Assembly: GCA_030704615.1 (NCBI GenBank)
Contig: CM060734.1
Coordinates: forward strand, 10,416,001 to 10,480,000
DNA: 64,000 nt
Direction of reading: 5' to 3'
Origin: Takakia lepidozioides
Taxonomy: Eukaryota > Plantae > Bryophyta
The stretch's first letter is position 1. Each line of letters opens with the position of its first letter. The notes under the pieces are model-generated. The model did no database searches. It was not told where the DNA came from and saw nothing but the letters and a program-made list of their open reading frames with translations. Below, in pieces: positions 5,943 through 32,548 of this stretch. The position numbers were made by a program, and so were the translations under genes.

Positions 5943-8252
5943 TCACCCCCTCATCTAGCGCCGAGTTCCTCGAGGAGCAGTAAAATCTTGGACTTGCTTA
6001 GAGTCGGAGAAAATCCAAAAATTCGGCGAATGGTACTTGCCAAGTATTCGGCTCTTCGTTCTTGACTCAAATGATTTATAGGTCCCTACAACCATCGATA
6101 GTGTCCAACATTTTGAACTTGGGACCACGCAGTGATTTGAGCATTCTGATTTTCGAAACTGCCTTCAAACATGATTTCGTTGCCCTTAAGGTCCGAAGCC
6201 TCAACCTCCAACAAAATTATCAGACTTCGAGTAGGCTCCACTTGCCGTCGTACGGGGTCTAGACGAGGGAGTACGCGTCGCATTGGTGGCCCATCGTCTC
6301 GAGAGCGTCGGCGTGATGTTGAAGGTCGTGAGAGTCGGAACGGCTGATCTGGTAGTTAGGTAAGCGACAACTCCAATGTATCTGGTTCCTGTGATTCCAT
6401 GTTGCCAATACAAAATGCAAGAGTGTTGGAAGTGTAGCAATATATACTGATGTATGGTGTTCCTCCCTCCTTAGCGTATATCAGGTACATTGAATGTGGA
6501 GTCTTCACCTTGAAGCTAACTTGGCTGACATCATCGTTGTGACGTCTTATTGACGTGTAGCTCGGGACTTAGCTGGATATCGTTGATGAAACTCTTGGAC
6601 TTTGTCAGATGCATTGGCGAGGTTGGATGAAGGTTCACACGTTCATTCGCTGATGTCGTAGCCTTTCCAATGTACGAAATACTCAAAACGTTTATACTTG
6701 ATGCGAGAGTCTAGGACTTCGTCGACTTCATACTCAATTTCTTGATTGACTTCAATTGGTGGAGGTGGTACGGAGACTTTCCCTGGAATATTCGATGGAT
6801 GATACAACTCCAATAATGAAACATGAAAGACTGAATGGATGCGCATACTTCGTGGGAGTTCAAGCCGAAAACTGACCGGATTTATTTGTCGAATAATTTT
6901 GAATGGTCCCAGGCGTTGATAATCCAACTTCCTTGATGGTCGCGAGGTTTGTATGTCCCGTCGAAGAAGCCACACACGATCTCCGACCTTGAACTGGGGT
7001 TGGAGTTGGCGACGTTGATCTGCATACTCATTGTATTGTTTTTGAGCTTCTGCGAGGTGGAATGTAAGCTCCTTGTGAATCGTAGCAAGATGAGTAGCAA
7101 GGTTTTCTACAGCAGGGCTTCTAATAGTCTTCATGAGGAAAGGGTTTGCTCGAGGATAATGACCATAATTGAAGAAAAATGAAGTTTGTTTGGTCGAAGA
7201 ATGTATAGTGTTGTTGTAGGCAAACTCAGCCAATGACAGAAAGTCCGTCCAATTATCTTGGTGATAATTTATCGTACAGCGAAAATACTGCTCCAAAATC
7301 TGGTTTACACGTTCGGTTTGACCATCAGTCTGTGGATGATTAGCTGTAGAGAGGTTGATCTTAGTATCCAATATGTGAAATAATCCCCTCTAAAAATTTG
7401 ATATGAACTGTGGTCCTCGATCAGATATGATATCCTTCGGGAGTCCATGAATGCGGTAGATATTATTGAGGAAGAGTCTTGCAGTTTCCTCGCCGGTAAC
7501 CATCTTATTACATAGAATGAAATGTGTCATCTTCGTAAAACGATCTACAATAACAAGGATTGAATCGGTGGTCTTGGAAATTGAAAGGTCCATAATAAAG
7601 TCCATAGACACGGACGACCATGGACCCTTGGGAATGGGTAATGGTTGAAGAAGGCCGTAAGGTCGATATCGTGGTCCCTTCGCTCTAGCACATGTGTCGT
7701 AAGATTTTATAAATTCTTTCACAAGTTTTCACATCTGCGGCCACCAATAGTCCCTGGATATCAATTCCATTGTTTTGTTGAAGCCGAAATGTCCTGCAGC
7801 CGGAAGATCATGACATGTTTGAAGAATTCGAAGTCCTGTAGGTCCTGGAGGTACATAGAGAAGTCCATTGAAATAAAATAAGTCATCTTTGAATTCGAAG
7901 TCGTTTGTAACCTGTGGGTTGTCTCGAGGTCGATTTAATTGACTTCGTAGTGTCGTAGCAAATTGGTCGATCTTCAGTGCTTCCTGAATTTCCTTTATGA
8001 TCTTTGCATCATCATAGGTAGACATAGATAGTATATTCAATTGGAGATTTGCCGGTTTCAAGATGATGGATTTATGTTGGTTGAAAGCCGTCTCCTTTTT
8101 TTTCGGCGCAAGATACGATCGTCGAAAAAGAGCATTGAAAATGTCCGGGGCGATAGGTAATAACAAATCAAACCTTGCTAGTGACATACCCCATCTGGCT
8201 TGACGTCGATTCAAAACACGAGCACTCATAAAATATTCGAGGTTTTTGTGAT
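5322..8252 (-). mobile_element. 5'-truncated Ty3/Gypsy chromovirus (Tcn1-like): end of RNaseH, integrase, chromodomain, PPT and 3' LTR
   Basis: HKNLEYF..LNRRQARW; CHDLPAAGHFGFNKT; SMDFI / SDRGPQF / HPQTDGQTERVNQ (DDE); GPF motif; chromodomain EYEVDEVLDSR..YFVHWKGY. Several stops and frameshifts. Confidence 0.9.
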
Positions 8253-8323
8253 ATCTGCCATTTTGATTTGCAGCTGTTCCATTGTGCTGATGCACCCTGC
8301 GTTGTGGCAGGTCTCATTGGAGT

Positions 8324-8806
8324 TTGGTGATTATTGATCGGGTGCTCCACGTATTCACTCATCTGAACTCAATCAAAGAGATGCACAAACCCATGGAGAT
8401 ATTGCCATGGGTTCGAAATGTGTATGGAGCATGTCTCGGCTTGGAGCCGCACACTGCGTCATGGGACGAGGCCACTGCATTCATTTTTCATGTCCCTGAA
8501 GTGCCACAGCAACCCTTCTCGTGGGAATGTGGCTTTTACGTCATGTCCTTTATCGAGGGGTTCTACGACTGGTTGACGGGCGATCGTGGCAAAGGACTTG
8601 GAGAGAGAGGAAAGCCGTTTATCTCAAAGTGGTTTACATTTCGCTATGCTTGCAGGCAACGCCTAAAGTGTGTTGAGTACATTTTGGAAGCACTCAGTAC
8701 TATGGAGAATGTAGTTGTAGAAAGGCAGTTGTCATCTAGGAAGATGTCGGACGTGTCAGACTCTTCCGATGTCCGGATTATTTCATCTAGGCCGGGCAAT
8801 AAATGA
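8324..8806 (+). pseudogene. Ulp1-like (C48) cysteine peptidase C-terminal fragment, accessory gene of the MULE
   Basis: VPQQPFSWECGFYVMSFIE matches the PQQ.N..DCG.YV catalytic motif. It is convergent with the MULE transposase, an arrangement known for Ulp1-carrying MULEs. Confidence 0.7.
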
Positions 8807-9237: not shown

Positions 9238-9324
9238 TGTCGTGCGCATACGTATCGCTACACAACTACATCGTTGTCCAAACCACACCACACATATATG
9301 CACAATAAAGTAGTCTGCCACAAT
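9238..9324 (-). repeat. Terminal repeat segment A, outer copy (87 bp)
   Basis: tgtcgtgcgcatacg...gtctgccacaat, repeated at 9682-9767, 28650-28736 and 29094-29180. Confidence 0.95.
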
Positions 9325-9679
9325 GATAAGAAAGCTAAAAGACACACTGTTCACACAAGAAACAACATGAATCCAACAGCATCACTCTTTAAAATAGAAG
9401 TCGAGCCAGGGGCACCCCAAGCTATGGGGACTCCACCCCACAACAACCTATCCTCCCATCATAAGCACACTCAGCTTCTAAACGCATGAAGGAGCTCGGT
9501 CGCGCAGGCTCAACTCGAGAGAGATGAGCTGCGTGACTGCCGCTCTCGTGAAGATAAGACGGGTCAGGTGTCAAACTAAACTTGACACCTGATTTAACAC
9601 TTGACCTAAATCCAAGTGTTAAATACAAATAACTAGCTTTATTCTAGCTAGTTTCACACTGTGCTTATTTAACTTGACA
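9324..9679 (-). repeat. Terminal repeat segment B, 3' copy (356 bp)
   Basis: Near-identical to 20925-21280; only one substitution was noticed by eye (ESGSHAA vs ESGSRAA in the ORF track). Confidence 0.95.
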
Positions 9680-9681
9680 GT

Positions 9682-9767
9682 TGTCGTGCGCATACGTATC
9701 GCTACACAACTACATCGCTTCCAAACCACACCACACATATATGCACAATAAAGTAGTCTGCCACAAT
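9682..9767 (-). repeat. Terminal repeat segment A, inner copy (86 bp), immediately downstream of the PPT
   Basis: Separated from B by the 2-bp spacer in ttGACA-gt-TGTCgt. Confidence 0.95.
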
Positions 9768-9776
9768 CGCCCCCCT
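9767..9776 (-). promoter_or_regulatory. Polypurine tract (AGGGGGGCGA)
   Basis: Plus-strand tcgcccccct abuts inner segment A; identical in copy 2 (29180-29189). Confidence 0.7.
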
Positions 9777-10025
9777 AGCTGGTGGATAGGTCCCTCTAAC
9801 TCCAGATAGCTACAAGATGTAATAGCCACAGCCGTACTAAGTCCTCTATCACTGTCCCTATCGTGCTCAAACTCTATCAACCAAGAGGCCGGGTACAAGA
9901 GTAGCCCCATCGTTAGTCGCCGTCTTGCAATCTGTGAACTTGAGCCAAGATCTCGTGTGTTCAAGGTCTCATAGTAGCTTGGCCTTGCATTTCTTGTTAG
10001 CCTTCCATGGTTGTATCCACTCCCA

Positions 10026-13000
10026 TTATCCAATGCAATGTGGACATAACCAATCCCCATCCGGAACCATCTCAAGAGGTGGAGTCAAGCATCCCATATG
10101 CCAACCTCTAGAGCATCGATCACACACCAGCATGGTGGCTGCCCCTTTAGCAGACGCACACAACATGCACCTCAAACCTGCAGATACCACTGCCAGGTTT
10201 GGGTCAATCCTGCCATCGACATTCGGAAGGTGACATGGCGCACAATTACGCACATGGTCCTTCCAAGTTATGCCATCCCGACCCTCCAAGATCAAGACGC
10301 CTGAGGGCAATACCTCTCGAACCCTCAAAATAAGCCATCCTGCAGTCACATCCAAGGTCGTAGGAGTAGTTTGTTGCAGATAGACATAGTCACCAGGGTT
10401 CAATCTCCGAACCCCAGGACGATAGCCCCCACCACGTATAGTAGCATACCTCAACGTATCACGATGTTGTGCAATGGCAAGGTTCTCGAAAGCCATGGGC
10501 ATGACTTTCTCGAACAACTCTGCACGTTGATCACATGCACGTGCCCACACGTCCGGATCGTCAAGGTTAAGAACTGTAGTAGTTTCTCTACGAATGGATG
10601 TAGGCAAATCCGACTCTCGGCCAAAGAGAAGAAAGTATGGTGAGAAGGAGGCAAGTGATGCTTGCTTGCTGAACCTGTAGCCCATGGCTAACCAGGGTAA
10701 CTGAAGGTCCCAATCTCCTAGGTGTCCCTTCTGCAAGCCATACTTGCGCAAACCCCTCTTTACTGTCTGAACAACCCTCTCTGCCAAGCCATCGGCCTCA
10801 GGATGATCCCGAGAAGTGGTGCGGTGGTCTACCAAGGCCTTGTCACACAAAGCCTGAAACTCCCCCAAGAACTCTCTCCCTTGGTCCGTGAGTACCTCAG
10901 CTGGAGCACCGAATCGGCTAAGCACACAATCCAAGAATGCATACGCAGCTCCCTCACTAGCCTTATCAGGCAATGGAACCAATTCAATCCACTTGGAGAA
11001 GTGCTCCACCATCACCAACACGTACTTGTTGTGGCGCATGGTCAGTGGCAACGGCCCTGCGAAGTCAAGACTCCACCTGTAGCCCAATCCCATGATCGGA
11101 AGAGGGTGCAATTGTGGAGTAGGGGCGTTGAATGAAGCACGCACCCTGTCACACACCATGCACCTAGCCACAAATTGTTGCACCTCTGTGTGCATACCAC
11201 GCCACCAATACTGCCCCTGCAGTAGACTATGAGTGCGTCGCACCCCAAAATGCCCCAACTCCTCATGGGCATGCCGCACTAACCGTGCCCGCTGTGTTGG
11301 GTGAGGCACAATCCTCACTCGACCATCCTCCCACACTCGGAGCAGGTGTGTCCCCTCCCACTTGAACCTCTTGGCTCGTTGTAGGATCCGATCCCTCTCC
11401 TTGGCAGTCACAATGGCTGTAGTGTCTCCAGTGCGGAGGTAGTCCAACACAACTGAATCCTCATGTATATCTTTGGCGCCACATTGCTCATTGCTGGCCT
11501 CAGGGTCCTCAGACACTTGATCTACAGTCATCCCTGTTGCAGGTCCAACCTGGCCTTCCGCTGCCAAGATACACAGAAATGCAGATGCATGCCATCTGGG
11601 CACCATCTCCTCGTCCGTCTCACCATGCCACCGAGCTCCAGTGTCATCCTGCTGGCTTGTGCATGGATTGCGACTCAACCCATCTGCATTGCGATTGACC
11701 AAACCCGGTCGATGCACCACCTGAAAGTCATACTCTTGAAGGATGAGTGCCCACCGTGCAAGCTTCCCCGTAAGCTTGTCTGACTCCATCAACCACTTGA
11801 GTGGTTGGTGATCCGTGACAAGGGTGAAGAGATTGTCGTATAGATAGCACCTGAAGTGTGCCACGGCCCACACTGCAGCTAAGCATTCTCCCTCATATGA
11901 GCTATACTTAGACTCTGCAACGTTGTTCGAGCGGCTAGCATAAGCCACTACGAACTCTCTTCCCTCATCATCCACCTGTGTGAGCACCGCTCCAAGCCCC
12001 AGCATGCTCCAATCTGTATGCAGCTGAAAAGGACGCCCCCTGATAGGTCGTCTCAAGATGGGCGCCGAGGTCAACCTCGCCTTGAGCTCTTGAAAAGCTT
12101 GTTCTTGCTCATCTTCCCACTGCCACTCCTGGTCCACCTTGGTCAGCTTGGTTAGAGCCTTTGCAATGGCACTAAATCCCTTAACAAACCGTCTGTAATA
12201 GTTTGCTAACCCCATGAAAGCTCGAACTCGGCTCACATCCGTGGGGCGTGGAACCTGTGCAATGGACTCTACCTTAGTCTGTTGTACCCCCAATCCTCCA
12301 GGATATATCATGTGACCCAGATACTCAATCTGGTTGTGGAAAAACTTGCACTTTCCCGGATGTAACTTCAATCCGTGCGCCCTCAAGCGCTCAAATACCC
12401 CCTGAAGGTGTCTCTCATGCTCCTCCACCGTAGCACTAAAGATGATGATGTCATCTATGTAGCACCGAGCAAACTCCACCCCTGCTAGAATCCTGTCCAT
12501 GACTCTTTGAAACTCAGCGGGAGCGTTTTTAAGCCCAAATGGTAAGAACCGCCACTGGTATAGGCAATCCTTCCCGTGCTCATTGATCCCCCAGAATGCC
12601 GTCTTTTGCTTATCCGCCTCTTTGATCGGCAACTGGTGATATCCGGATCGTAAATCCAACGTGCTAAAGACCTTGGAATGCCCAATGGCATCAAAGATCT
12701 CCTCTGGTGTCGGCATGGCATACCTATCGGACTTGGTCTGACGATTTACAGGCCGGTAATCACCGCACATACGTCTCTCCGTCCAATTGCCATAGACATC
12801 CTTCTTGGCTGGCATCACTGTGGCTGAAGCATACTCTCCACCAGAGAGCTCCACCAAACCTGCCTCCCAAAGATCTTGAGTCCTCATCTGAATCAAAGAC
12901 CTCTCCATGTCACTGTATCTATAGGGTCTCCGAAAGATTGGCGTGTCAGTGGCCAACTCAATACGGATCTCTTGACCTTTCAGTGCTCCCAAGTCCTTCA

Positions 13001-13160
13001 AACTGAAGGCAAAGCAATTCCTGTAAGCCCTCAGGAACCGCCGTATACGTCGTCTCTCTCCTCCGGTGACAATGGGTCCAATGTCAGGCTCCCAATTGTC
13101 CTCCGTAACTGCAACCTTAAGTCCAGTGGGCTTAGAGGTAGAGGACGCGTCCCGTGGTTG
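10026..13160 (-). CDS. pol: Gypsy Pol: reverse transcriptase, RNase H, integrase (HHCC + DDE) and C-terminal PHD finger; intact reading frame
   Basis: LDLRSGYHQ, PFGLKNAP, YIDD; TDWS..GLGAVL, TDHQPL; HAHEELGH..CMVC, SLDFAG, TDQGREF, DGLAER; PHD CMLC..CDRC..WHMGC..CPHC. The frame is open from 13160 (991 aa from 13001). Confidence 0.97.
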   Translation of the reverse strand, partial: QPRDASSTSKPTGLKVAVTEDNWEPDIGPIVTGGERRRIRRFLRAYRNCFAFSLKDLGALKGQEIRIELATDTPIFRRPYRYSDMERSLIQMRTQDLWEAGLVELSGGEYASATVMPAKKDVYGNWTERRMCGDYRPVNRQTKSDRYAMPTPEEIFDAIGHSKVFSTLDLRSGYHQLPIKEADKQKTAFWGINEHGKDCLYQWRFLPFGLKNAPAEFQRVMDRILAGVEFARCYIDDIIIFSATVEEHERHLQGVFERLRAHGLKLHPGKCKFFHNQIEYLGHMIYPGGLGVQQTKVESIAQVPRPTDVSRVRAFMGLANYYRRFVKGFSAIAKALTKLTKVDQEWQWEDEQEQAFQELKARLTSAPILRRPIRGRPFQLHTDWSMLGLGAVLTQVDDEGREFVVAYASRSNNVAESKYSSYEGECLAAVWAVAHFRCYLYDNLFTLVTDHQPLKWLMESDKLTGKLARWALILQEYDFQVVHRPGLVNRNADGLSRNPCTSQQDDTGARWHGETDEEMVPRWHASAFLCILAAEGQVGPATGMTVDQVSEDPEASNEQCGAKDIHEDSVVLDYLRTGDTTAIVTAKERDRILQRAKRFKWEGTHLLRVWEDGRVRIVPHPTQRARLVRHAHEELGHFGVRRTHSLLQGQYWWRGMHTEVQQFVARCMVCDRVRASFNAPTPQLHPLPIMGLGYRWSLDFAGPLPLTMRHNKYVLVMVEHFSKWIELVPLPDKASEGAAYAFLDCVLSRFGAPAEVLTDQGREFLGEFQALCDKALVDHRTTSRDHPEADGLAERVVQTVKRGLRKYGLQKGHLGDWDLQLPWLAMGYRFSKQASLASFSPYFLLFGRESDLPTSIRRETTTVLNLDDPDVWARACDQRAELFEKVMPMAFENLAIAQHRDTLRYATIRGGGYRPGVRRLNPGDYVYLQQTTPTTLDVTAGWLILRVREVLPSGVLILEGRDGITWKDHVRNCAPCHLPNVDGRIDPNLAVVSAGLRCMLCASAKGAATMLVCDRCSRGWHMGCLTPPLEMVPDGDWLCPHCIG

Positions 13161-14507
13161 CTATGCTGCAACCTCTTGAGCAGTACTCCCTTCCTGCTCA
13201 GTCAATGACAAGGCCTCATCCTGCCCCATCATCTCATCATTGAGAACCTCCTCATCCCGAGAAGAATCCCCAACCTCATCCATCACAGCCGCCTTGGCTG
13301 CCAACTCCCTCTGAACCTCGAGCACCTCCCACGTGTGCCATGGATGTCTACACCCCGTGGTCCTCACCGGCTCGCCCCCACTCGCTGCCTGTACCGTCTC
13401 GGTAGGCAGAGAGACCGTCAAGGGAAGTGCACTCCGCACTCTACGTTGCTCAGCCATAGCCAAGCTGATAATCCAGGTCAAGCAATTGAGATCCATTGCT
13501 TGCCCCAACACCTGACGACGTGATGCCTCAGAAAGAGAAGGCACCGCCGTGGTCCCAGTGGAAAATCCCATAGCCCGCTCTCGCTCGTCGGCATTAGGCT
13601 CCACTAACTGTTGCAACTGAGCATCCCACAGGAGGCCAGGTCCACCATCCCGAAAAGCATGGGATCCTGGGAAGCTGAGCAGTGTAGGTAATGCTGCTCG
13701 TGGTTGACCCACCCTGTTGACCACTGCCAAAGGCGAACGGTCATCGTGTCTCACACGTTGAGACTGCCTCCCTGTGTCCAAAATGCTGTCCACTATGAGG
13801 TGTGTTGGCCGCTGCACCCCATCAAATGCACGCTTGAGCAGTGCGGGTGGCATCAAGTTAGTCCACCATAGCCGTGGACGATGAGCCCGTGATCCCACTG
13901 CAGCTGCATCCAGCAGCACTGCTGACCCAAGCCACGACCGGACTTGATGCACACTGGCCATCACCCTGGCCCGAGAATCGCCCATCAGTGGCACATTCTC
14001 CAAGATGTATGCTGGCGATACAGCTTGATGAAGCTGCAAGTGGCGCAAAATCCGCCCCATCTCCCAAAACAGACCCGTCCTCGAGTCTCGCAATCCATTG
14101 CCATGCCCGGCTGATGAATGCCCTTGGCAGGGCCAACCTGCCACTACCAGATCAATGGAGCCAACCTGCTCCAAATCCGGCGCCCCCAGCAACGAAATGT
14201 CTGCTGGCAAGGCTTGTTGGTATCCACGAACTGCAGACACTGGCAACAAAGCAGGGTACTGCTGTACCAACTGAGCAACATGGCGCAGTGAGACGCGTCG
14301 TGCAGTCTCATCCCTCTCCACATACAGGTAACGCCTTACCCACACACCTGCCTGTAGCACAGCAGCCAATCCGGTGCTGATCCCGCCAAACAAGTCCAGA
14401 AGGCAAATGCCTTCATCCGGATACTGCCACACAATAGGTGTGGTATGGTGACAACTGAGGTGGTCCTGGTGCAATACCCGCACTCTCCTCCTCTCCTGAC
14501 GGTACAA
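13161..14507 (-). CDS. C5 cytosine DNA methyltransferase domain (DNMT3-like) within the retrotransposon polyprotein
   Basis: Motif I LLDLFGGISTG, II YVERD, IV DLVVAGWPCQG (catalytic PC), VI ILENV, VIII AHRPRLWWTN, IX/X ERERAMGF...RRQVLGQAM. Same frame as RT, separated by one TAG. Confidence 0.93.
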   Translation of the reverse strand: MYRQERRRVRVLHQDHLSCHHTTPIVWQYPDEGICLLDLFGGISTGLAAVLQAGVWVRRYLYVERDETARRVSLRHVAQLVQQYPALLPVSAVRGYQQALPADISLLGAPDLEQVGSIDLVVAGWPCQGHSSAGHGNGLRDSRTGLFWEMGRILRHLQLHQAVSPAYILENVPLMGDSRARVMASVHQVRSWLGSAVLLDAAAVGSRAHRPRLWWTNLMPPALLKRAFDGVQRPTHLIVDSILDTGRQSQRVRHDDRSPLAVVNRVGQPRAALPTLLSFPGSHAFRDGGPGLLWDAQLQQLVEPNADERERAMGFSTGTTAVPSLSEASRRQVLGQAMDLNCLTWIISLAMAEQRRVRSALPLTVSLPTETVQAASGGEPVRTTGCRHPWHTWEVLEVQRELAAKAAVMDEVGDSSRDEEVLNDEMMGQDEALSLTEQEGSTAQEVAA

Positions 14508-14858
14508 AAGCCTCTACCCAGGCTTGTTGCACCCGTCGATCAGCAACCTGCTGCAAATCCTTGCTCGTACCCCACAATGGAGTGTGAGCAACCATGGCAG
14601 GCAACTCCGCCATACCATGCATGTCATCCTGCTCTGCTGGAGGTGGCACATCCTCTGCATGGGCATTGCCTTCCAGCAACTCTCCAGGCCAACTAACTGC
14701 AGCTGTAAAGGCGGCTAGTGTTGGCATCTTGCCCCGTTGGGCAGCCGCAATACCCCAATGAATGTCACAGGGAGCTGTGCACGACGACCATCCCCTGACT
14801 GCCATCCGGCCTGTAGAATGCTGACTCCTCCCAAAAGTCCAGGGTGAAGCCCATGGGG

Positions 14859-15797
14859 TTATAACACTGCCCCACCAACGAGGACATCGTAAGAGACCGC
14901 GTCTGTCACAATGGCCTTGGCTCGCATCACTGAGCCATCTGTAGGATGATCCGGCTGCAGTCTAATGGCCAACTGATGCCGTGTCATGCCCCGAGCCTGC
15001 TCTGATCCTCCCAGAGATGTCTGTATCTGGAAAGGACAAGGCTCCATATCCGCCTCCATGAGGCCCAAACCTGCAATAGCAGCTCTGCCCAACATCAGTG
15101 GCTGAGCTCCCGAGTCCAACAAGACCCGCAGTGGCCGGTACTTCTTGCCTGCCGGTCCACTCAAAGAGAAAATGTCATCCTGGTTGTCTAACAAGACAAC
15201 TCCAGGTGTCACCATGGCGCGCTCAAAGGCTGGCCTAGCTGGCAGCTCCGTCAACCTGGCAGCTGCAGCTTGCCATGGCGCAGCCGTGGCAGTCTTGACC
15301 CTCAAATCCGAGGATCCCTCTGCCACTACACCTTCCACTAACTCCGCAGAAGATGAAGTGACCTCCCCACTCTCACAGAGTGTTGCTGCTAGTCTGAACA
15401 CTGCAGCTGGTCTTACCCCCGGCGTCGCAATCATGGTTGCCGAGAACAGTGGGGCTTGACACACAGAGGTGGCTGCCCCCAACAACACACCGGCTGCACT
15501 AGCCTTGGCAGCAGGTGTCAGTGCTGCACGTGTAGCTCTCCCCAATGGCATAGAAACCTCCGCCTCGGTAACAGTCGGGCGAGAACTAGGTGCCATGGAT
15601 GGCGTTGACACTGTCTCCGCCAAGGTGAATGACTGAGGCAGCCTCGCCTGACGGCTTGCCTCCCCACGTTGTGGATCCAACTCCACCTCTGCACCTCGTG
15701 GCTCAGGAACTCGTGCTGCTCCTCGAGTCACGGCTGCAGCAGACTCCACCTGCTCTAGTGGTAGTGCTGCTCCGCACATGAATCCCATGCCTCCCAT
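14859..15797 (-). CDS. Retropepsin aspartic protease region of the polyprotein
   Basis: VLLDSGAQ and YDVLVGG motifs. Translation past the TAA continues as PMGFTLDFWEE, indicating a mutated continuous ORF. Confidence 0.85.
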   Translation of the reverse strand: MGGMGFMCGAALPLEQVESAAAVTRGAARVPEPRGAEVELDPQRGEASRQARLPQSFTLAETVSTPSMAPSSRPTVTEAEVSMPLGRATRAALTPAAKASAAGVLLGAATSVCQAPLFSATMIATPGVRPAAVFRLAATLCESGEVTSSSAELVEGVVAEGSSDLRVKTATAAPWQAAAARLTELPARPAFERAMVTPGVVLLDNQDDIFSLSGPAGKKYRPLRVLLDSGAQPLMLGRAAIAGLGLMEADMEPCPFQIQTSLGGSEQARGMTRHQLAIRLQPDHPTDGSVMRAKAIVTDAVSYDVLVGGAVL

Positions 15798-15914
15798 ATC
15801 TCCTCCCTCAGGACAGGAGGTGGACCATCCCGCCTGGGAGCCGGTACCGCCTGAGCTGTAGCCATGGCAGCGAGCCTCTGCTCTAGCTGCTGAAGCCGGT
15901 TGGCCATGCCTTGG

Positions 15915-17335
15915 TCAACACCCTGACCTCCGCGTCCTTGGCCATGTTAAGCTTGCCCGACCACCTCGTCCTCTCTGGGCTGGTCCACCTCGCCCCCGGC
16001 CACCATTGTTCCCTTGGAACTGGCCTGGGCGCAACTCAGGATGCAAGTCATAACACTGGGCATCTCCATGCCCATACTTGCCACAATGCCCACACTGCAA
16101 CTGTGCAGGCTGTGCTTGTGCCGGCCTTCTGCCACTCTCTGGGCAATCTCTCTTGACATGGGGTCCTCCACATGTCCAACATATCACCCCTGGTTGTTGT
16201 TGGCCTGCAAAAGATGCCACGGGCCTCTGCACCTGAGGTCCCCTGTAAGCTCCATGGAACTTGGGTTGGGAAACCTTGCCCCCCTGACCACGCTGTTGGG
16301 CAGTCCCTTGTGCCTGTGGGCTGGCAGCTGCGCCTCGTGCAGGCATGTCCTTGCCAAATCCAATGGTAACAACTCGCTCCTCCACCATGTTGAGCTCAAT
16401 CCGCTCAGCCAGCAGAAACACATCTGCTAATGTGGGTTGGGCTGCTTGTAACAGGGTTGCATCCCGCACCCTTCTCCTGAGCTCCTTGTCCAAAATTCCA
16501 TACCAGAACTGGATTGCCTGAGCTTCAGTAACCCCTTGGGTCACACTTATCAAGCGCCTCATACGAGTGTACGCCTCTCGCAGGCTCTCACTGGGTTTGC
16601 GCTGGAAGTCTTGCAAACTTCGCAGCTTCTCTGTCCGTACACCTTGGTAGTTCCTCCGCAACTCCTGGAAGAACTCCACCACCGGGTTGAATCTAGGCAC
16701 ATGTGTTGTAGTCGTGGCAGGAGGAGTAGTAGCACCTTTTGAACTGGTACCACCTACAGAAGTACCGGCACTACTTGTTCCACTACTAGTGCTGGCAGTG
16801 GGAGATATTGGTACTGATGCAGCTACTGGTCGCGTGTGCCTCGAGTAATGGAGACGTAGTCAGGTGACCAATACATCCTCCACTCCTCAATCTCTGCTTC
16901 ATGTCCTCGCCTGAACTCGTGGTAATCGTCCATAGGCGGGCCTTCCAAATGCTGGAACAGTCCCTTCCACGCCATGAATGGGGTGAATAGCTGTGGATTG
17001 CGCATCTGCTGCAAATCACACCAGCTGTCGAACTCCTGGATAAAGTCATCCAACTCGATTGTGCCCACAGCTCCAGAGTACCTACGAGGCCCCTTGGTAG
17101 CTCCATACATCTCCTCCATGTCGTCCCACAACAATGGCGAATGAAACTGCACACCTGTTGATGAAGCCTCCGAGTCTGTGTCTGACTCTACAGTAGTTGA
17201 GGGTGGCGGTGAAGGTGGTCTGAACCGAATACCTCGTCTTGTGAACCCACTCTCACTGTTACTGCCTGTAGCCGTACTCCCCTCAAAACCCTTGGGTAAC
17301 TCCGTAATGACACTCACAATGTGCACCTCCTCCAC
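15915..17335 (-). CDS. gag: Gag (frameshifted near 16830) with two CCHC zinc knuckles
   Basis: YSG..IELDDFIQEFD and QKPSESLREAYTRM capsid-like motifs; CWTCGGPHVKRDC and CGHCGKYGHGDAQC; split over ORFs 16823-17335 and 15915-16700. Confidence 0.88.
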
Positions 17336-17839
17336 GTGACACTATAAGGCTCTAGTACTTCTAATAGTGACACGGGTAGGCACCTGTTGCAGTTTAAGGG
17401 TCATATCCCAATGGCTCAGGGCACCTGCACCTGCATCCACCGCAAGAACTCCTATGGTTGGCTGGTCATCAACCCAGCCTCACCATAGAAGAAACACTGG
17501 TGGTCTTGCTGGTCATCACTCCAGCCTCACCACCGACAGCATACTCTAGGATTGACCGGTGATCAAATCCGGCCTAATCCCTATGAAAGCAAGCGCCCAC
17601 ACAAAACCAACATGGCGCACAGTCAAGCATGCAGGTGTTGGGGGGGATCCAAACACAAGAAATCAAAACATCAACACCCCCACACCAAAATCCAGCTGCA
17701 ATGCTGATCCTGCAGAATAGCCCAGCCCAAAACCCGGACTGACTGGCCTCCACCAAGAGAGGCTTTGGCAACTACAAGTACAAGGTAATGAAAATAGTAC
17801 AGAGATGGAGGGAAGAATAGAAGCCCGACCAAGCAAGAT

Positions 17840-18589
17840 CTAATCCTGATCTATGCTATCAACTGCCAGACTTCTCTCAAAGTGCCTCGCTCTGCATGAT
17901 GGTAAGGTGTAGGAGGTATATCTATGTCCAGAAACCTTGTCCCAAGCTACAGTAGCTCGCTCTAACCAACCCTCCTCCTCTTTCTGCCAGGTAGAGACAA
18001 AGCAATACTCCCCTATCTCCCGCTCACTGAACACTAAAGAAAACAAAGGTAGGGTCTGATAGTCTCTCAACTCGAAAGCTTTGAGACGGTTGCGGGTGTC
18101 CTCATTGCGAATGACTGCATCTCCTTCACGCACAACAAACATGTCATTGCTAATGAACCCCCGCTCGTGGTTGCCCTGTGCAGAGCGTATCCGGCTGCAA
18201 CCATGTCTGATTGCACAAACTTGTGTAGCTCCTGCTCCTCTGCTCCAGTACACCACGGCCTTGTGGCTGAACACCTTGGTCCCCGGGGCTGTCTTTGGCT
18301 GTGTTCCAAGCCTAGCTTTCACCCACTTTGGTATTTCACCTACAGCTGCAGAACTGCTGGCTCCAACAGAGTTCTGACTGTCCAAGGCGATATTGAGGCC
18401 CTCAATGCCAACTACAGCAGTCTGTTGTCTACTGCTAATGCCTGACTCCCAGTATGCAATCAACTCGTCTAACTGTTCTCCACTCAAATCAGTCTGAGTT
18501 CCTTGGGAAACATAAATCTTGTCCCCTTGTGTGCACAGGCTAAGAGATGAGACCTGCCCTTCAATTACGTCCTCATTTCCCCCAGCCAT
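17840..18589 (-). CDS. Extra 249-aa ORF upstream of gag, unknown function
   Basis: ATG-initiated open frame, co-oriented with gag, globular-looking C-terminal half; no family recognised. Confidence 0.45.
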   Translation of the reverse strand: MAGGNEDVIEGQVSSLSLCTQGDKIYVSQGTQTDLSGEQLDELIAYWESGISSRQQTAVVGIEGLNIALDSQNSVGASSSAAVGEIPKWVKARLGTQPKTAPGTKVFSHKAVVYWSRGAGATQVCAIRHGCSRIRSAQGNHERGFISNDMFVVREGDAVIRNEDTRNRLKAFELRDYQTLPLFSLVFSEREIGEYCFVSTWQKEEEGWLERATVAWDKVSGHRYTSYTLPSCRARHFERSLAVDSIDQD

Positions 18590-19930
18590 ACAAGGAGTAC
18601 ATCCCCAGATTTATCTCTCATGTAGACCAAAACAGGTTCTAGAAACAGGATTGTGGGTCTTTCATGGCACACTCACACTCTAAAAATTCCATAGATTTCT
18701 AGCAGAGTCCCAAAAACAAAAACCAGGTCTAGATAGGTAGATATCCCCTTTCTGCAGCTATCCCCTCAAAAATTGAGTCAAACGGAGCTCATTTGACAAA
18801 GATATGACCAACCAGGCTCTTTAAACATAACACCAAAACTCTTTTTTTTTTCTTTTTTTTTTCTTTTTTTTTTAACACCAAAACGTTCTCGCCATTACAA
18901 CCTGTTCCCAGGTTATCTACGGGTTCCCGAGGCCGTTCCCCCCGACAGGACTTCGCCAGTGAGATTCATAGTCCCTTGGGAGGCATTGAACAGTCTTTAA
19001 CCAGTTAAGGGATAGATCTGGCACGGACTGTCAACTCAGCCTCTTCAGTGCAGGTGATTAGAGGATCTGTTGTTGCTGTCATGGAGGTGACAGAGGAGAC
19101 TCAAGGAGCAGATGGAGTAAATGGAAACACTGCCAAAATACTGGCTGCTGTAGTGACTTCCAATAGGCGACCAGCTGTGTCAGACTCCGAAGATGATGAT
19201 TCAATCTCATGGTCAAGTTCAGGCAGCGAGGAGCATAACCGGAAAGAAAGAGGAAGTATCACAGATGAAGGAAAAGAACAGGTGAGTGTATCACGAGCAT
19301 CTGCAGATGGCGTGGTTATGGACTCTCACCATCAGTTTGACCATTCTGGAAGTTCTGGGAGTTCTCTAAGGGATGCAGAGCTCCACTCTCAAGTGCCTGT
19401 GGCAGACACTGTATCAGAGGTGTATTCGCCTCCCAGCATAAACACACAGGGCTTTCTTGCTGGCGACACAAGGACAAGCACGGCACCCACAACATCCGCA
19501 AGGCTTGATCTTATAGCTCGTGTTCCTCTACTCATAACTGAGACTGTCCGTTTTTCAAGTGTTGATAGTGGTCGTAGGGGGCGATTGGCAGGGGCTGCCG
19601 AACTGGGCATTAAGGAACTCTTCACATACTGTACAGATTGCGAAATGGTGTCGGGCACTTTGTTCAGAACGCCTTCCCCTTGCTGAGGCCTTGAAGTAGA
19701 AGTTGAATCAGTTGGGCTGCCTGTCAATTGACCCACCTGCTCCTTGAAGGCGTCCTTGGCCAACACTGCAGACTGCGTAAGGCTATCGCCTCGTTTCCCT
19801 TCGCTGATCAACCGTCTCTCGCACTCATCTTCGCCAATTCTGTTGTACAAATTTGTGGTACACCACACGGCCTTCTTTGCGCACAAGCTTGCCGTTGTTG
19901 GGATTTTAAGAGCAACCCACCTCGCACAAA

Positions 19931-20761
<831 letters not shown>

Positions 20762-20910
20762 TCAAACTCACGCGCAGAGACGACAACTAAATCTGCGCGC
20801 ACAGCCCATGGCAACAGCAGGGCCAGATGGACTCCTGCCCCAAAATATATATTATAATAGTGCTAAAACAAACATTGTATCTAGCTTAGCACCAGCACAC
20901 TAGATAACGG

Positions 20911-20925
20911 TCATCTCTCTCGAGT
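20911..20925 (-). promoter_or_regulatory. Putative self-priming primer-binding site
   Basis: tcatctctctcgagt (20911-20925) is the exact reverse complement of actcgagagagatga (21114-21128) inside the 5' repeat. No tRNA-type TGG PBS is present. Confidence 0.75.
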
Positions 20926-21280
20926 GATAAGAAAGCTAAAAGACACACTGTTCACACAAGAAACAACATGAATCCAACAGCATCACTCTTTAAAATAGAA
21001 GTCGAGCCAGGGGCACCCCAAGCTATGGGGACTCCACCCCACAACAACCTATCCTCCCATCATAAGCACACTCAGCTTCTAAACGCATGAAGGAGCTCGG
21101 TCGCGCAGGCTCAACTCGAGAGAGATGAGCTGCGCGACTGCCGCTCTCGTGAAGATAAGACGGGTCAGGTGTCAAACTAAACTTGACACCTGATTTAACA
21201 CTTGACCTAAATCCAAGTGTTAAATACAAATAACTAGCTTTATTCTAGCTAGTTTCACACTGTGCTTATTTAACTTGACA
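20925..21280 (-). repeat. 5' terminal repeat (segment B only, 356 bp)
   Basis: Element-strand TGTCAAG...TTATCA; matches 9324-9679. Confidence 0.95.
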
Positions 21281-23251
21281 CGATGTATGCAGTACTCCTC
21301 GCCGAGGTCTGCTGCTGAATTGATGTTATTGGTCTGCTACCTCCACGAGGTGGACTTAGTTTGGACCACGGTTGTTGGTCTGCTCCATGAGATAGTGGTA
21401 TACTAAATTCGGTGGTCGCCTGAATGTGGGGCACAAGTCAGACCCATCGTTAGTCGAGTATACTGTCTTTGTGTACCCCTGTACTGTATTGGTCTGCTTC
21501 ATTGAGCTATGTTTGCTTTATTACTCTACTACATTTGTTTACTGGTTCACTTTGGCTCATTTATTGACTTCATTGGTCTCCTTCATGAAACCTTTAAAAA
21601 GCACATTAAGGGTGTCGCAGATGCTCTACCGCATTGGTCTACTACAAGTCAGTGCTGGTCTACTGTAGGTGGTCTGCGATCATGGTCTGCTGCATTGGAC
21701 AACTGCAGGTGACAATTGGTCTACCGCATTGGACAACTGCATGTCATTTCCTTAGTTAGATTGATCCTTCTTTCTTAGTTCTAGACGATGAGACACCCGC
21801 CTCAGAGCCGAGTAAATATGGCTAACAGGGGGAAGGGCAGACACACGTTTCCCCCCATTTAGTTTCATTTTCCGCCGAGCTTGAAAATATTCCACAAAAT
21901 CATTTTTCCTCTTCAATGACATGTTGTTGTTGTCTTTTACACGATTGAACGTTCATCTGCAGCTGGGTGTAACATGCCGGAAGCTTTTTTGACGAGGATG
22001 TCTTGCATCTGCCCTCGGCAAACACGCACCGCAGATAAGCAATGGTGTATAAGGTATGCGTCGTTGTGTACAAGGTCAAGCAGGTCGGTTATCTCTCGTT
22101 TCAAAATAGCTTCCAACAGGTCTGGCGTGAGCAACGACTCTGCCGTGTTCGGGGTTGCGCTTGCACGCACATTGTCGTTACCGCTTTCGAGGTCGCATGC
22201 TGCCATGTCTTCGTGTTCATCCAAATTCTCCAGCCCACCGTGAACAGTACCGAGATGGGAACCATATGTCCGGATAATGAGACAGTCTTGTAGGTCTGGT
22301 TTTACCAACTTTATGACCCGAACCTGGTGTTTGCACAGATTGCCTTTTAGCGCCCACGGGCAGGTGCAGCAGGCCCACTGTGACTCTAGATTGAACATGG
22401 TGTACGTTGTATTCGGATCGGAGGAGCTGATCACATAAGCAGGCTGCCCAAGCGCTGCAGGCAAAGTCACACGTGAAAGAGGTATGTCACGGGCTGCACA
22501 TATTGCACTGGAAATGTGCTTTTCCAGTTTATCGCTGCGAATAAACCCATGCATCTTCAGATGAATGTCGTACCAGTAGTGGACCAGTACACGCCCAGTC
22601 AACTCCCATATGAGCCAATCGGCTCTTCGACCGGTCATTTTGCCTTTGCCCATATTAAGTCTTGCCTTTAAGTTTTCGTGGTATGCCTCGATGCTTGCAT
22701 TAGTATCTTGGCTTGCATGTGGAATGTTGCGGGCAGCCGTACACCACATAGCAATTTTGGGAACCCAGTACACATGAATGTAGTGGAGGAACAACTGACC
22801 AGCAAGATATTTCTTTTTCATTGCCTTCAATTTTTTCTTAACCCATTTCACAGCTTCGTCTTCTTTCTGCGGTCCACCTTTGCAGTACATAAGGTCGCCC
22901 ATATCTGCCAACAGTTTCGAGGATGTTCCCGGATCACTGATTTTCTGGCATGATTGCTTGACCTAGGCCTTCCGTACATGCCAAAGGCAAAGGAAAATGC
23001 ATACTCCTGTGAAAACAAACCTGCATGCGGCCACAAAGTCAGAAGTGCCTGAACCGGGCATTCGTATTCAGCACTGCCACAAGCGTGAGACCAAACAGGG
23101 CAGACCAAATAGGGCAGACCATATAGCAAACCCCTAAAGCGGACCATAAGGCAGACCATAGGGCAGACCATAGGGCATATCAAGCTCCCAGGGCACCTCA
23201 CCCTTGTGCACCAAACTCCCTGGGAACCCTCGGCAGACGCTCAATGCTGCA

Positions 23252-28649: not shown

Positions 28650-31600
28650 TGTTGTGCGCATACGTATCGCTACACAACTACATCGTTGTCCAAACTACAC
28701 CACACATATATGGACAATAAATTAGTTTGCCACAATAGATTGTAAGAACTAAACTCACATGTCTGATAACAAAGAAACACAAAACACAACACAATCACTC
28801 GTTAAACTAAGAGTCGAGCCAGGGGCATCCCAAGCTATGGGGACTCCACCCCACAACATCTTATGCTCCCTTCATAAGCACACTCAGATTCTCAGCAGCA
28901 AAGGAGCTCGGTCGTGCAGACTTAACTCGAGAGAGATGAGCCGCACGACTGACGCTCTCGTGAAGATAAGATGGTTTAGGTGTCAAGCTAAACTTGACAC
29001 CTGACTTAACACTTGAACTAAATCCAAGTGTAAAATACAAATAACTAGATTTATTCTAGTTAGTTTCACACTGTGTTTATTTAACTTGATAGCTGTCGTG
29101 CGCATACGTATCGCTACACAACTACATCACTGTCCAAACTACACCACACATATGTGGACAATAAAGTAGTCTGCCACAATCGCCCCCCTAGCTGGTGGAT
29201 AGGTCCCTCTAACTCCAGATAGCTACAAGATGTAATAGCCACAGCCGTACTAGGTCCTCTATCACTGTCCCTATTGTACTCAAACTCTATAGACCAAGAG
29301 ACCGGGTACAAGAGTAGCCCCATCGTTAGTCGCCGTCTTGCAATCTGTGAACTTGAGCCAGGATCTCGTGTGTTCAAGGTCTCATAGTAGCTTGGCCTTG
29401 CATTTCTTGTTAGCCTTCCATGGTTGTATCCACTCCCACTATCCAATGCAATGCGGACATAACCAATCCCCATCAGGAACCATCTCAAGAGGTGGAGTCA
29501 AGCATCCCATATGCCAACCTCTAGAGCATCGATCACACACTAGCATGGTGGCTGCCCCTCTAACAGACCCACACAACATGCACCTCAAACTTGCAGGTAC
29601 CACTGCCAGGTTTGGGTCAATCCTGCCATCGACATTCGGAAGGTGACATGGCGCACAATTACGCACATGGTCCTTCCAAGTTATGCCATCCCGACCCTCC
29701 AAGATCAAGACGCCTGAGGGCAATACCTCTCGAACCCTCAAAATAAGCCATCCTGCAGTCACATCCAAGGTCGTAGGAGTAGTTTGTTGCAGATAGACAT
29801 AGTCACCAGGGTTCAATCTCCGAACCCCAGGACGATAGCCCCCACCACGTATAGTAGCATACCTCAACGTATCACGATGTTGTGCAATGGCAAGGTTCTC
29901 GAAAGCCATGGGCATGACTTTCTCGAACAACTCTGCACGTTGATCACATGCACGTGCCCACACGTCCGGATCGTCAAGGTTAAGAACTGTAGTAGTTTCT
30001 CTACGAATGGATGTAGGCAAATCCGACTCTCGGCCAAAGAGAAGAAAATATGGTGAGAATGAGGCAAGTGATGCTTGCTTGCTGAACCTGTAGCCCATGG
30101 CTAACCAGGGTAACTGAAGGTCCCAATCTCCTAGGTGTCCCTTCTGCAAGTCATACTTGCGCAAACCCCTCTTTACTGTCTGAACAACCCTCTCTGCCAA
30201 GCCATCGGCCTCAGGATGATCCCGAGAAGTGGTGCGGTGGTCTACCAAGGCCTTGTCACACAAAGCCTGAAACTCCCCCAAGAACTCTCTCCCTTGGTCC
30301 GTGAGTACCTCAGCTGGAGCACCGAATCGGCTAAGCACACAATCCAAGAATGCATACGCAGCTCCCTCACTAGCCTTATCAGGCAATGGAACCAATTCAA
30401 TCCACTTGGAGAAGTGCTCCACCATCACCAACACGTACTTGTTGTGGCGCATGGTCAGTGGCAACGGCCCTGCGAAGTCAAGACTCCACCTGTAGCCCAA
30501 TCCCATGATCGGAAGAGGGTGCAATTGTGGAGTAGGGGCGTTGAATGAAGCATGTACCCTGTCACACACCATGCACCTAGCCACAAATTGTTGCACCTCT
30601 GTGTGCATACCACGCCACCAATACTGCCCCTGCAGTAGACTATGAGTGCGTCGCACCCCAAAATGCCCCAACTCCTCATGGGCATGCCGCACTAACCGTG
30701 CCCGCTGTGTTGGGTGAGGCACAATCCTCACTCGACCATCCTCCCACACTCGGAGCAGGTGTGTCTCCTCCCACTTGAACCTCTTGGCTCGTTGTAGGAT
30801 CCGATCCCTCTCCTTGGCAGTCACAGTGGCTGCCGTGTCTCCAGTGCGGAGATAGTCCAACACAGCTGAATCCTCATGTATATCTTTGGCGCCACCTTGC
30901 TCATTGCTGGCCTCAGGGTCCTCAGACACTTGATCTACAGTCATCCCTGTTGCAGGTCCAACCTAGCCTTCCGCTGCCAAGATACACAGAAATGCAGATG
31001 CATGCCATCCGGGCACCATCTCCTCGTCCGTCTCACCATGCCACCGAGCTCCAGTGTCATCTTGCAAGCTCGTGCATGGATTGCGACTCAACCCATCTGC
31101 ATCCCGATTGACCAAACCCGGTCGATGCACAACCTGAAAGTCATACTCTTGAAGAATGAGTGCCCACTGTGCAAGCTTCCCCGTAAGCTTGTCTGACTCC
31201 ATCACCACTTGAGTGGTTGGTGATCCGTGACAAGGATGAAGAGATTGCCGTATAGATAGCACCTGAAGTGTGCCACGGCCCACACTGCAGCTAAGCATTC
31301 TCCCTCATATGAGCTATACTTAGACTCTGTAACGTTGTTCGAGCGGCTAGCATAAGCCACTACGAACTCTCTTCCCTCATCATCCACCTGTGTGAGCACC
31401 GCTCCAAGCCCCAACATGCTCCAATCTGTATGCAGCTGAAACGGACGCCCCCTGATAGGTCGTCTCAAGATGGCGCCGAGGTCAACCTCGCCTTGAGCTC
31501 TTGAAAAGCTTGTTCTTGCTCATCTTCCCACTGCCACTCCTGGTCCACCTTGGTCAGTTTGGTTAGAGCCTTTGCAATGGCACTAAATCCCTTAACAAAC

Positions 31601-32548
31601 CGTCTATAATAGTTTGCTAATCCCATGAAAGCTCGAACTCAGCTCACATCCGTGGGGCGTGGAATCTGTGCAATGGACTCTACCTTAGTCTGCTGTACCC
31701 CCAATCCTCCAGGATATATCATGTGAACCAGATACTCAATTTGGTTGTGGAAAAACTTGCACTTCCCTGGATGTAACTTCAATCCGTGCGCCCTCAAGCG
31801 CTCAAATACCACCTGAAGGTGTCTCTCATGCTCCTCCACCGTAGCACTAAAGATGATGATGTCATCTATGTAGCACCGAGCAAACTCCACCCCTGCTAGA
31901 ATTCTGTCCATGACTCTTTGAAACTCTGCCGGAGCGTTCTTAAGCCCAAATGGTAAGAACCGCCACTGGTATAGGCAATCCTTCCCGTGCTCATTGATCC
32001 CCCAGAATGTCGTCTTCTGCTTATCCGCCTCCTTGATCGGCAACTGGTGATATCCGGATCGTAAATCCAAAGTGCTAAAGATTTTGGCATGCCCAATGGC
32101 ATCAAAGATCTCCTCTAGTGTCGGCATGGCATACCTATCGGACTTGGTATGACGATTTACAGGCCGGTAATCACCGCACAAACGTCTCTCCGTCCAATTG
32201 CCATAGACATCCTTCTCGGCTGGCATCACTGTGGCTGAAGCATACTCTCCCCCAGATAGCTCGACCAAACCAGCCTCCCAAAGGACCTGAGTTCTCATCT
32301 GAATCAAGGACCTCTCCATGTCACTGTATCTATAGGGTCTCCGAAAGATTGGCATGTCAGTAGCCAATTCAATGCGAATCTCTTGACCCTTCAGTGCTCC
32401 TAAGTTCTTCAAACTGAAGGCAAAGCAGTTCCTGTAAGCCCTCAAGAACCGCCGTATACGTCGTCTTTCTCCTCCGGTGACTATAGGTCCAACATCAGGC
32501 TCCCAGTTGTCCTTCGTGACTGCAACCTTGAGTCCAGCAGGCTTAGAA
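28650..32548 (-). mobile_element. Second, 5'-truncated copy of the PHD-Gypsy family (RT-RH-INT-PHD plus A-B-A terminus)
   Basis: Near-identical Pol peptides (ORFs 29439-30944, 30963-31468, 31639-32556) with frameshifts/stops; A 28650-28736, B-variant 28737-29091, gc spacer, A 29094-29180. Broken off just before the DNMT region. Confidence 0.93.

Follow-up and report, generated by a model that had tools for sequence, protein, structure and literature searches.

Why should a retrotransposon carry a DNA methyltransferase, and how does one whose repeats are split between its two ends insert itself? Both questions are raised by a retroelement on the minus strand of a 64,000-nucleotide (nt) stretch of the Takakia lepidozioides genome (Bryophyta; assembly GCA_030704615.1, contig CM060734.1, positions 10,416,001 to 10,480,000), here called the window, in which it occupies positions 9238-21280. 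The element is a frameshifted, PHD-finger-bearing Ty3/gypsy retrotransposon of the KnitGypsy-Dnmt3 lineage, with the end arrangement A-ORFs-B-A-B, A and B being repeats on either side of the open reading frames (ORFs). DNMT cargo in a retrotransposon is of a known kind, and the more surprising features are a conserved stop codon and the permuted ends. The combined reading favoured here, which we regard as probable without being secure, is that of a member of this lineage that would translate its reverse transcriptase (RT) by stop-codon readthrough and would integrate circular complementary DNA (cDNA) via an internal palindrome.

A DNMT3-like domain in a gypsy element

An open frame of 450 codons (13164-14513, minus strand) matches PF00145 (E=5e-12; 46 bits against a cut-off of 22) and keeps all catalytic motifs in the normal, unpermuted order, namely motif I LFGGISTG (14370-14393), motif II VERD, motif IV PCQ (14121-14153), motif VI ENV (13992-14000), motif VIII RAHRPRLWW (13863-13889), motif IX ERERAMGF and motif X RRQVLGQAM. 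The best PDB match by sequence is DNMT3A (2.5e-10, versus 2e-4 for M.HhaI), which also leads in profile comparison (2e-18, versus 1.8e-8 for DRM2) and is the best fold match of a predicted model with a mean pLDDT of 68 (E=2e-14, TM 0.62). In this ranking, which is one of best matches and not tree-based, DNMT3A stands above DRM2, DNMT2 and bacterial enzymes. The DNMT3-like identity of the domain is real, and a sequence-only reading of the window, which had proposed an intact C5 methyltransferase domain resembling DNMT3 between protease and RT, was right on each of these points.

The RT, RNase H (RH), integrase (IN) and PHD finger found by Pfam scan all lie in one frame (10029-13160). The same reading had placed the DNMT in frame with Pol; it does share the frame of the RT, but a TAG intervenes, and in this copy the protease is in a different frame. 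Six to seven frame switches were mapped across gag and protease (near 16835, 15950, 15813, 14859, ~14820, 14752 and 14444), five of which are seen also as indels in contigs aligned to the window. Several sit in short homopolymer runs and may be assembly errors, although the switch at 14444 is not in such a run. The DNMT and pol have no frame breaks of this kind, an asymmetry for which we offer no explanation. As assembled, the window copy is defective. The second copy in the window (Table 1) is cut short by a 2.6-kb repeat, so that it ends just before the stop codon and hence before the DNMT. Aligned-contig depth is high over DNMT and pol alike and is not usable as a measure of copy number. 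High aligned depth is also seen over a 256-codon frame in the leader (17843-18610, minus strand), which has no Pfam match and no homologue among the relative loci.

Relatives among green plants

At E<=0.001, the DNMT domain has 234 relatives in a set of 7997 candidates close to it in length and 78 in a set of 7989 longer candidates, and a profile search returned 484 clusters at E<=1e-30. The best named relatives are from Marchantia, Calypogeia, Riccia and Sphagnum (58-77% identity), and annotated Marchantia polymorpha genes such as Mp_4g09160 and Mp_8g17980 are 73-75% identical. Klebsormidium KFL_009030040 (46%) and Monoraphidium are also among the named relatives, one DNMT-bearing cluster is from Hariotina, and relatives found through Pol add Closterium, Tetraselmis and Coleochaete. 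Viral contigs yielded one weak locus (L081) among 83 candidates. In a quick RT-RH tree with few outgroups, 102 of 111 rows fall into one clade (SH-aLRT 99) that includes Klebsormidium, Closterium, Tetraselmis and liverwort proteins, and the window groups with Marchantia, Calypogeia and L010 (support 97), near liverwort and peat-moss-like rows. Judged from these comparisons, membership in the KnitGypsy-Dnmt3 lineage is almost certain, and both the link to the Klebsormidium element and the extension to land plants that had been suggested from the window alone are borne out.

A D-34-E spacing is found in 122 of 126 pattern-matched integrases, the four with 35 residues being outgroup rows. In one large subclade (P0170, P0176, P0179, P0195 and most of the multi-domain rows), to which the chlorophytes Hariotina and Monoraphidium belong, the DNMT lies between RNase H and integrase, and among new representatives RT or RH precedes the DNMT, or integrase directly follows it, in 69 of 137. 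The position of the DNMT has changed within one lineage. In the tree, the DNMT clade excludes P0312, a gypsy Pol with a PHD finger and an adenine methyltransferase match (PF05869).

De Mendoza et al. described KnitGypsy-Dnmt3 of Klebsormidium nitens in 2018 as having one Pol ORF and DIRS-like repeats combined with gypsy domains (PMC5890265; sources here and below are cited for their accessible parts). In that element as in the one of the window, an unpermuted DNMT3-like domain without introns is set between the protease and RT of a gypsy Pol, and DIRS-like repeats and purifying selection are further shared features (PMC5890265); the two also fall into one RT-RH clade. In contrast to the single ORF reported there, the window element has a conserved readthrough-type stop between DNMT and RT, and its relatives extend to land plants; since the stop breaks the DNMT-RT ORF, it is a variant and not a plain member of that lineage. 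The accessible description of KnitGypsy-Dnmt3 makes no mention of a PHD finger, palindrome, target duplications, self-priming or integration mechanism (PMC5890265), and later papers, as far as accessible, give the range of such elements only as 'streptophytes'. Literature searches, which did not extend to Repbase, to the main supplement of PMC5890265 or to the majority of subscription journals, turned up no paper on such elements in land plants or chlorophytes, nor one on their stop, their self-primer or their palindrome with target duplications. The DAM-LTR/EpiLTR elements are likewise gypsy-type and combine a DNA methyltransferase with a chromatin-reader domain, but theirs are DAM or DNMT4-like domains with chromodomains, and the same source treats streptophyte Gypsy-DNMT3 as a separate capture (bioRxiv 10.64898/2026.05.21.726589).

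Split repeats and a conserved palindrome

The DNMT had been taken to lie inside terminal repeats, and it is indeed flanked by direct repeats; these are split as A...B-A-B and are not long terminal repeats (LTRs). Self-comparison of the window gives the order A1, ORFs, B1-A2-B2, with no two complete LTRs, and the full arrangement recurs in the loci L048 and L075. A1 and A2 differ at one of 356 bases and B1 and B2 at two places in 87, and by this measure the repeats look young; the claim of a young copy agrees with their near-identity but not with the six to seven frameshifts and the missing target-site duplication.

The arrangement is read as a normal LTR (B+A) that has been permuted at a conserved palindrome, GACA-NN-TGTC. 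This palindrome, always with a 2-nt spacer, is present in the window, the second copy, L023, L026, L032, L038, L048, L075, L077 and L078, and has been kept in lineages that are only 41-70% identical at the DNMT. The predicted left end of the cDNA, the start of B, is unlike the palindrome in not being conserved between lineages. An integrated element runs from the start of A to the end of B, with TG...CA termini in all copies read, and exact 4-bp target duplications flank five of the seven single-contig pairs (L048, L075, L025, L072 and L042); that of L012 has one mismatch. The termini and the duplications are thus shared with canonical Ty3/gypsy elements (TG...CA, 4-6 bp), the two complete terminal LTRs are not.

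A G-rich tract stands immediately 5' of B1 in every family read. The bases directly after A1 can pair with a stretch inside A that in relatives lies about 30 nt past the TATA box, and which, by the predicted transcript start, would serve as a self-primer. A primer complement of at least 10 nt with at most one mismatch occurs at the TATA-proximal site in 11 of 16 A1 ends, and two of the five ends without it have lost the site. The complementary sequences themselves differ between the family of the window and the peat-moss-like family. A similar complementarity between the first 11-12 nt of the transcript and a site after the 5' repeat is described for Tf1/sushi and Tcn1 chromoviruses (PMC7175516, PMC6317226), and it is to the self-priming of Tf1 that the likeness is drawn (PMC7175516). 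Tf1-like self-priming of reverse transcription is, on these matches, quite likely in this element and its relatives. With the polypurine tract before B and the primer match after A, B+A would act as the working LTR. The element is unlike Tf1/sushi and Tcn1 in having a PHD finger and no chromodomain after the integrase, as well as permuted ends and DNMT cargo.

Ends were counted after repeated assemblies had been merged by hand, and L003, L005/L006, L009, L080 and the 3' end of L042/L044 were left out as truncated, rearranged or a neighbour's. The 20 remaining 3' ends divide evenly, ten retaining the palindrome and A and ten ending after a single B. Copies with a single B have diverged further than those with B-A-B (median distance 0.091-0.145 versus 0.089-0.092; 10 versus 4; p=0.024), so many of them may derive from later recombination between B1 and B2; one-LTR circles or double cuts are alternatives. 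A rearranged copy at L042:13156-13444 fuses a portion of A to nine bases of the primer site and these in turn to B, with nothing in between, and a 4-bp duplication still flanks it.

Split direct repeats of the PAT/Ngaro type are usually explained by a circular intermediate. The layout A1-ORFs-B1-A2-B2 is that of PAT/Ngaro-type DIRS elements (PMC5890265), which the window element does not resemble in its DDE (rve) integrase, its TG...CA termini and the 4-bp duplications of its relatives; no tyrosine recombinase family matched in the nine frames scanned. Troyka was considered as a name for a split-repeat gypsy element and rejected, as its CG...CG termini, 3-bp duplication and restriction to animals do not fit (PMC12440569).

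A proposed route through circular cDNA

The following course of events is proposed. Transcription would start inside A, and the first 11-12 nt of the transcript would prime reverse transcription in the manner of Tf1. Standard LTR-type synthesis would then yield B-A-ORFs-B-A, the two ends of which would be joined by ligation, or by a jump of the RT across them, to give an A/B junction. Integrase would cut the palindrome of the 5' B/A with a 2-bp stagger, leaving CA-3' ends and 2-nt overhangs that resemble processed retroviral ends, and A-ORFs-B-A-B would be inserted with a 4-bp duplication. Joining the ends and opening the circle at the first palindrome is the simplest route from B-A-ORFs-B-A to A-ORFs-B-A-B, and the A2/B2 join of integrated copies abuts both predicted cDNA ends. 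We consider a circular cDNA intermediate reasonably probable from this arrangement.

The circle junctions of IS3/IS911 are a further case of DDE enzymes with such a substrate. HIV-1 integrase is able to cut the palindromic 2-LTR junction (PMC1905944), and cleavage of retroviral 2-LTR circle junctions resembles the proposed step in that a DDE enzyme cuts an internal palindrome of abutted ends (PMC1905944; PMC1180852, PMC4372172). What is a side reaction in retroviruses would, however, be the main route here, and the palindrome, which has a 2-nt spacer, lies within the repeat unit.

A stop codon between DNMT and RT

The DNMT and RT are in the same frame and are parted by TAG-CAA-CCA. Stop contexts were compared in 57 rows, the window and 56 of 80 metagenome loci, each with DNMT and RT; these are not independent, most belonging to one peat-moss-like family. 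At the DNMT/RT boundary, 47 of the 57 have TAG or TAA followed by CAR-Y, and six (window, L010, L012, L031, L032 and L038) have the exact CARYYA. In three further rows CAR is replaced by another stop codon, the result expected of a C-to-T change. The signal is found in about five subfamilies (window, L010, the large family, L031/L032 and L038), and the linkers between DNMT and RT vary in sequence and in length (288-411 nt where intact), yet the frame is kept. The first-frame proteins P0122-P0124 and P0137 terminate just past the DNMT. A chance mutation, considered as an origin for the stop, is rejected in view of this recurrence of stop and CAR-Y across subfamilies; no weight is given here to the finding that none of the best-supported 40 of 143 variant rows is a change at the stop.

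SIRE1 uses readthrough between pol and env. Type I readthrough in plant viruses such as tobamoviruses takes place at the signal UAG-CAR-YYA (PMC3542737), and TAG-CAA-CCA of the window fits it. The element is like the tobamoviruses in stop, 3' context and want of a strong downstream structure (PMC3542737), and unlike them in that the stop parts Gag-protease-DNMT from RT, with an enzyme cargo on the abundant side. Production of RT-RH-IN-PHD by readthrough is very probable on this pattern of conservation, with Gag-protease-DNMT as the likely bulk product and RT-RH-IN-PHD as a minor extension. If Gag-protease-DNMT is the main product, many DNMT molecules would be loaded per particle.

Selection and the possible role of the DNMT

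Between families, and where dS is measurable, the ratio of non-synonymous to synonymous substitution rates (dN/dS) of the DNMT is 0.07-0.25, with 274 of 946 pairs saturated; for L031/L032 it is 0.12. In the window's own family, 15 of the 26 core variants found among the best-supported 40 of 143 variant rows are synonymous. These values support purifying selection on the DNMT between families. The outcomes named in advance as damaging to the sequence-only reading (no HMM match, a domain missing from other copies, neutral decay) were none of them found, between-family dN/dS being low.

The DNMT, which would be packaged in amounts similar to those of Gag, would methylate CG sites of newly made DNA. 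DNMT3 domains from DIRS elements of Symbiodinium methylate CG in yeast (PMC5890265). A catalytically active DNMT that acts on the element's own cDNA is the role that we favour, by a small margin. The PHD finger, by analogy, may steer integration by reading histone H3 tails.

Weighing the combined reading

A number of observations weigh against this reading. Readthrough, circles, the transcript start and methylation are all predictions from sequence. The window copy has no flanking target-site duplication, and no primer complement is seen in the basal locus L076. There are two palindromes in a 2-LTR circle, and the sparing of the second needs an extra assumption; an RT jump across the ends would account for this asymmetry as well as for the precise A/B join. 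No strong RNA structure was found downstream of the stop (z -0.4 to -1.7 in 8/8), the most abundant family has CAACCC, one base off CARYYA, and the stop is missing in L077/L078, Klebsormidium P0185, P0190 and Closterium P0274, so that it is not family-wide. Close pairs in the peat-moss-like family have a dN/dS of 0.5-0.9 for the DNMT, against 0.3-0.85 for RT, as expected of copies decaying after insertion; most DNMT frames of this family contain stops, and overall 32 of 44 full-length DNMT frames have at least two. CG depletion (0.46-0.56) is within the range of neighbouring sequence (0.44-1.0) and not distinctive. Finally, the Klebsormidium domain gave no methylation in yeast, a result that its authors call inconclusive (PMC5890265).

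As to how the ends arise, a free circle may not be needed: template switches during reverse transcription, or linear cDNAs dimerised head to tail, could give a linear A-ORFs-B-A-B that integrates in the ordinary way. End-joining usually leaves ragged joints, and the A2/B2 junction is precise in all four close copies (window, L026, L048 and L075); moreover B never precedes A1 in 17 5' ends, so that the alternative form A-B-A-ORFs-B was not seen among them. Standard synthesis that is primed after A, with the polypurine tract preceding B, would, however, force B to the left end of the cDNA, and a retained palindrome with an invariant 2-nt spacer would be purposeless unless it is cut internally. 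We regard this account as rather unlikely.

A similar standing, that of a rather unlikely alternative, is given to the view that the domain is kept for a non-catalytic or host-directed role, for example to bind DNA or RNA inside the particle or to disturb methylation by the host, or that it is simply carried along. This view draws on the inactivity of the Klebsormidium domain in yeast just mentioned, and on RT and integrase being more conserved than the DNMT (for L032/L038, dN/dS is 0.12 for DNMT, 0.04 for RT and 0.02 for integrase). The catalytic motifs are nevertheless invariant or nearly so in alignment A1, between-family dN/dS is low, and the domain was retained after its shift to a second position, between RH and IN, in the subclade; an active enzyme is preferred.

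Translation of RT-RH-IN could also depend on an mRNA from which the stop has been spliced, or on reinitiation. Splicing between gag-pro and rt occurs in Ogre elements, the Marchantia gene models P0125 and P0135 bypass the stop region, and in several algal relatives the second frame is called separately with a Met start (P0201, P0225). The gene models are predictions only, however, and a single stop within an otherwise open, frame-keeping linker, with CAR-Y kept across subfamilies, is against this explanation, as is an ungapped contig that spans the stop junction, though weakly so, from a run (X14) presumed by guess to be RNA. Splicing or reinitiation is improbable, and readthrough remains the preferred reading.

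Equally improbable is a targeted role for an active DNMT, in which methylation of the CG beside one palindrome, or of the chromosomal copy, would shield it from integrase in restriction-modification style: this would explain why one palindrome of two is cut, DNMT and permuted ends co-occur in Klebsormidium and every lineage with readable ends, and the CG four bases from the palindrome cut (CACGACA) often shows C-to-T or G-to-A changes, but such CG decay is expected from host methylation anyway.

Other features of the window

The coordinates of the element and of neighbouring features are collected in Table 1.

Table 1. Positions of the retroelement's parts, its second copy and two further coding features in the window
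Feature	Position	Strand	Remarks
5' repeat A1, 356 bp, starts TGTCA, likely promoter-bearing	20925..21280	-	99.7% identical to A2
Predicted first 12 nt of transcript, candidate self-primer	21115..21126	-	start inferred from TATA spacing in relatives
Candidate primer-binding site directly after A1	20913..20924	-	complement of 21115-21126
gag with CCHC-type zinc-knuckle motifs	15918..17341	-	PF03732 weak, E=0.0013; 61-78% to Marchantia P0123; frameshifted here
Aspartic protease (LLDSG)	14862..15350	-	PF13975/PF13650 E ~0.01; frameshifts part protease from DNMT here
DNMT3-like C5 cytosine methyltransferase domain, motifs I-X unpermuted, no stop	13452..14420	-	
In-frame stop TAG, then CAA-CCA	13155..13163	-	TAG itself 13161-13163
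Reverse transcriptase core (YIDD)	12306..12776	-	PF00078 E=1.9e-32
RNase H	11730..12035	-	PF17917 E=7.9e-35
DDE integrase, HHCC finger and core	10800..11300	-	PF17921, PF00665; 34 not 35 residues between second D and E
C-terminal PHD finger	10035..10169	-	PF00628 E=3.7e-10
Polypurine tract directly before B1	9767..9778	-	same position in relatives
Repeat B1	9682..9766	-	97.7% identical to B2
B1/A2 palindromic junction GACA-2 nt-TGTC, candidate integrase attachment site	9675..9686	-	
Repeat A2	9324..9679	-	self-comparison
Repeat B2, 3' end of element, ends CGACA	9238..9323	-	
Second copy, 5'-truncated, RT to B-A-B end	28650..32547	-	95.7% identical
Oxidoreductase fragment	20339-20761	-	PF07992 E=1.7e-5
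LEA-like ORF	19910-20620	+	Atlas lead only, 0.84

Between the primer site and the rest of the leader lies about 2 kb of host-like DNA (18939-20900) with far lower aligned depth, apparently captured from the host. It matches pieces of at least two contigs of a presumed RNA run, and a contig of X3 links 18820 to 20913 without it. The oxidoreductase fragment within it is one that we take to be MDHAR-like. At 18829-18886, a 36-nt poly(A) tract (18840-18875, in element sense) stands between 11-bp direct repeats of its own, and looks as though a tail alone had been inserted by target-primed reverse transcription; because of these repeats, it is not taken for the tail of the captured DNA.

A 2,640-bp unit is present in at least five near-identical tandem copies, the repeat areas being 50473-64000, 44427-49742 and 32547-34424. 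Inverted copies adjoin a gap of 500 N (43920-44419), the longest frame is 126 codons, and a partial copy truncates the second retroelement. These repeats could be a tandem array or an assembly artefact. Elsewhere the window contains an ordinary chromovirus remnant with integrase zinc finger, SH3 and chromodomain (6643-8313, minus strand), a DUF6570 frame (2488-3742, minus strand) that is presumably Helitron-associated, an Ulp1-type protease fragment (8291-8806, plus strand), a SWIM-finger frame (21937-22962, minus strand) and further transposase-like frames (36055-39703, plus strand), the transposase-like frames being, we assume, MULE-like.

Implications

Retroviral-type integrases are taught to use linear cDNA, circles being dead ends. 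If the layout of this element is that of an opened 2-LTR circle with ordinary target duplications, it would be a natural exception to that rule and, if true, would tie the chemistry of gypsy, DIRS and IS3-type elements together; taken together, the features described here amount to a testable argument that circular cDNA is the substrate of a gypsy integrase. More tentatively, and going further than we would yet favour, in a Ty3/gypsy clade found throughout green plants an internal palindrome may have replaced the cDNA ends as attachment site, and these elements may normally insert circular cDNA by a retroviral-type integrase, package DNMT3 at capsid-like amounts by means of a leaky stop, and mark their new DNA, possibly thereby choosing the palindrome that is cut.

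Such elements would be overlooked by LTR finders, and their DNMT frames risk being counted as host genes. The stop predicts that DNMT reaches Gag-like amounts in each particle. This lends a sharper edge to the question why a retrotransposon should have a DNMT at all, and the homologues in Marchantia polymorpha bring that question into a model plant for which methylation mutants exist.
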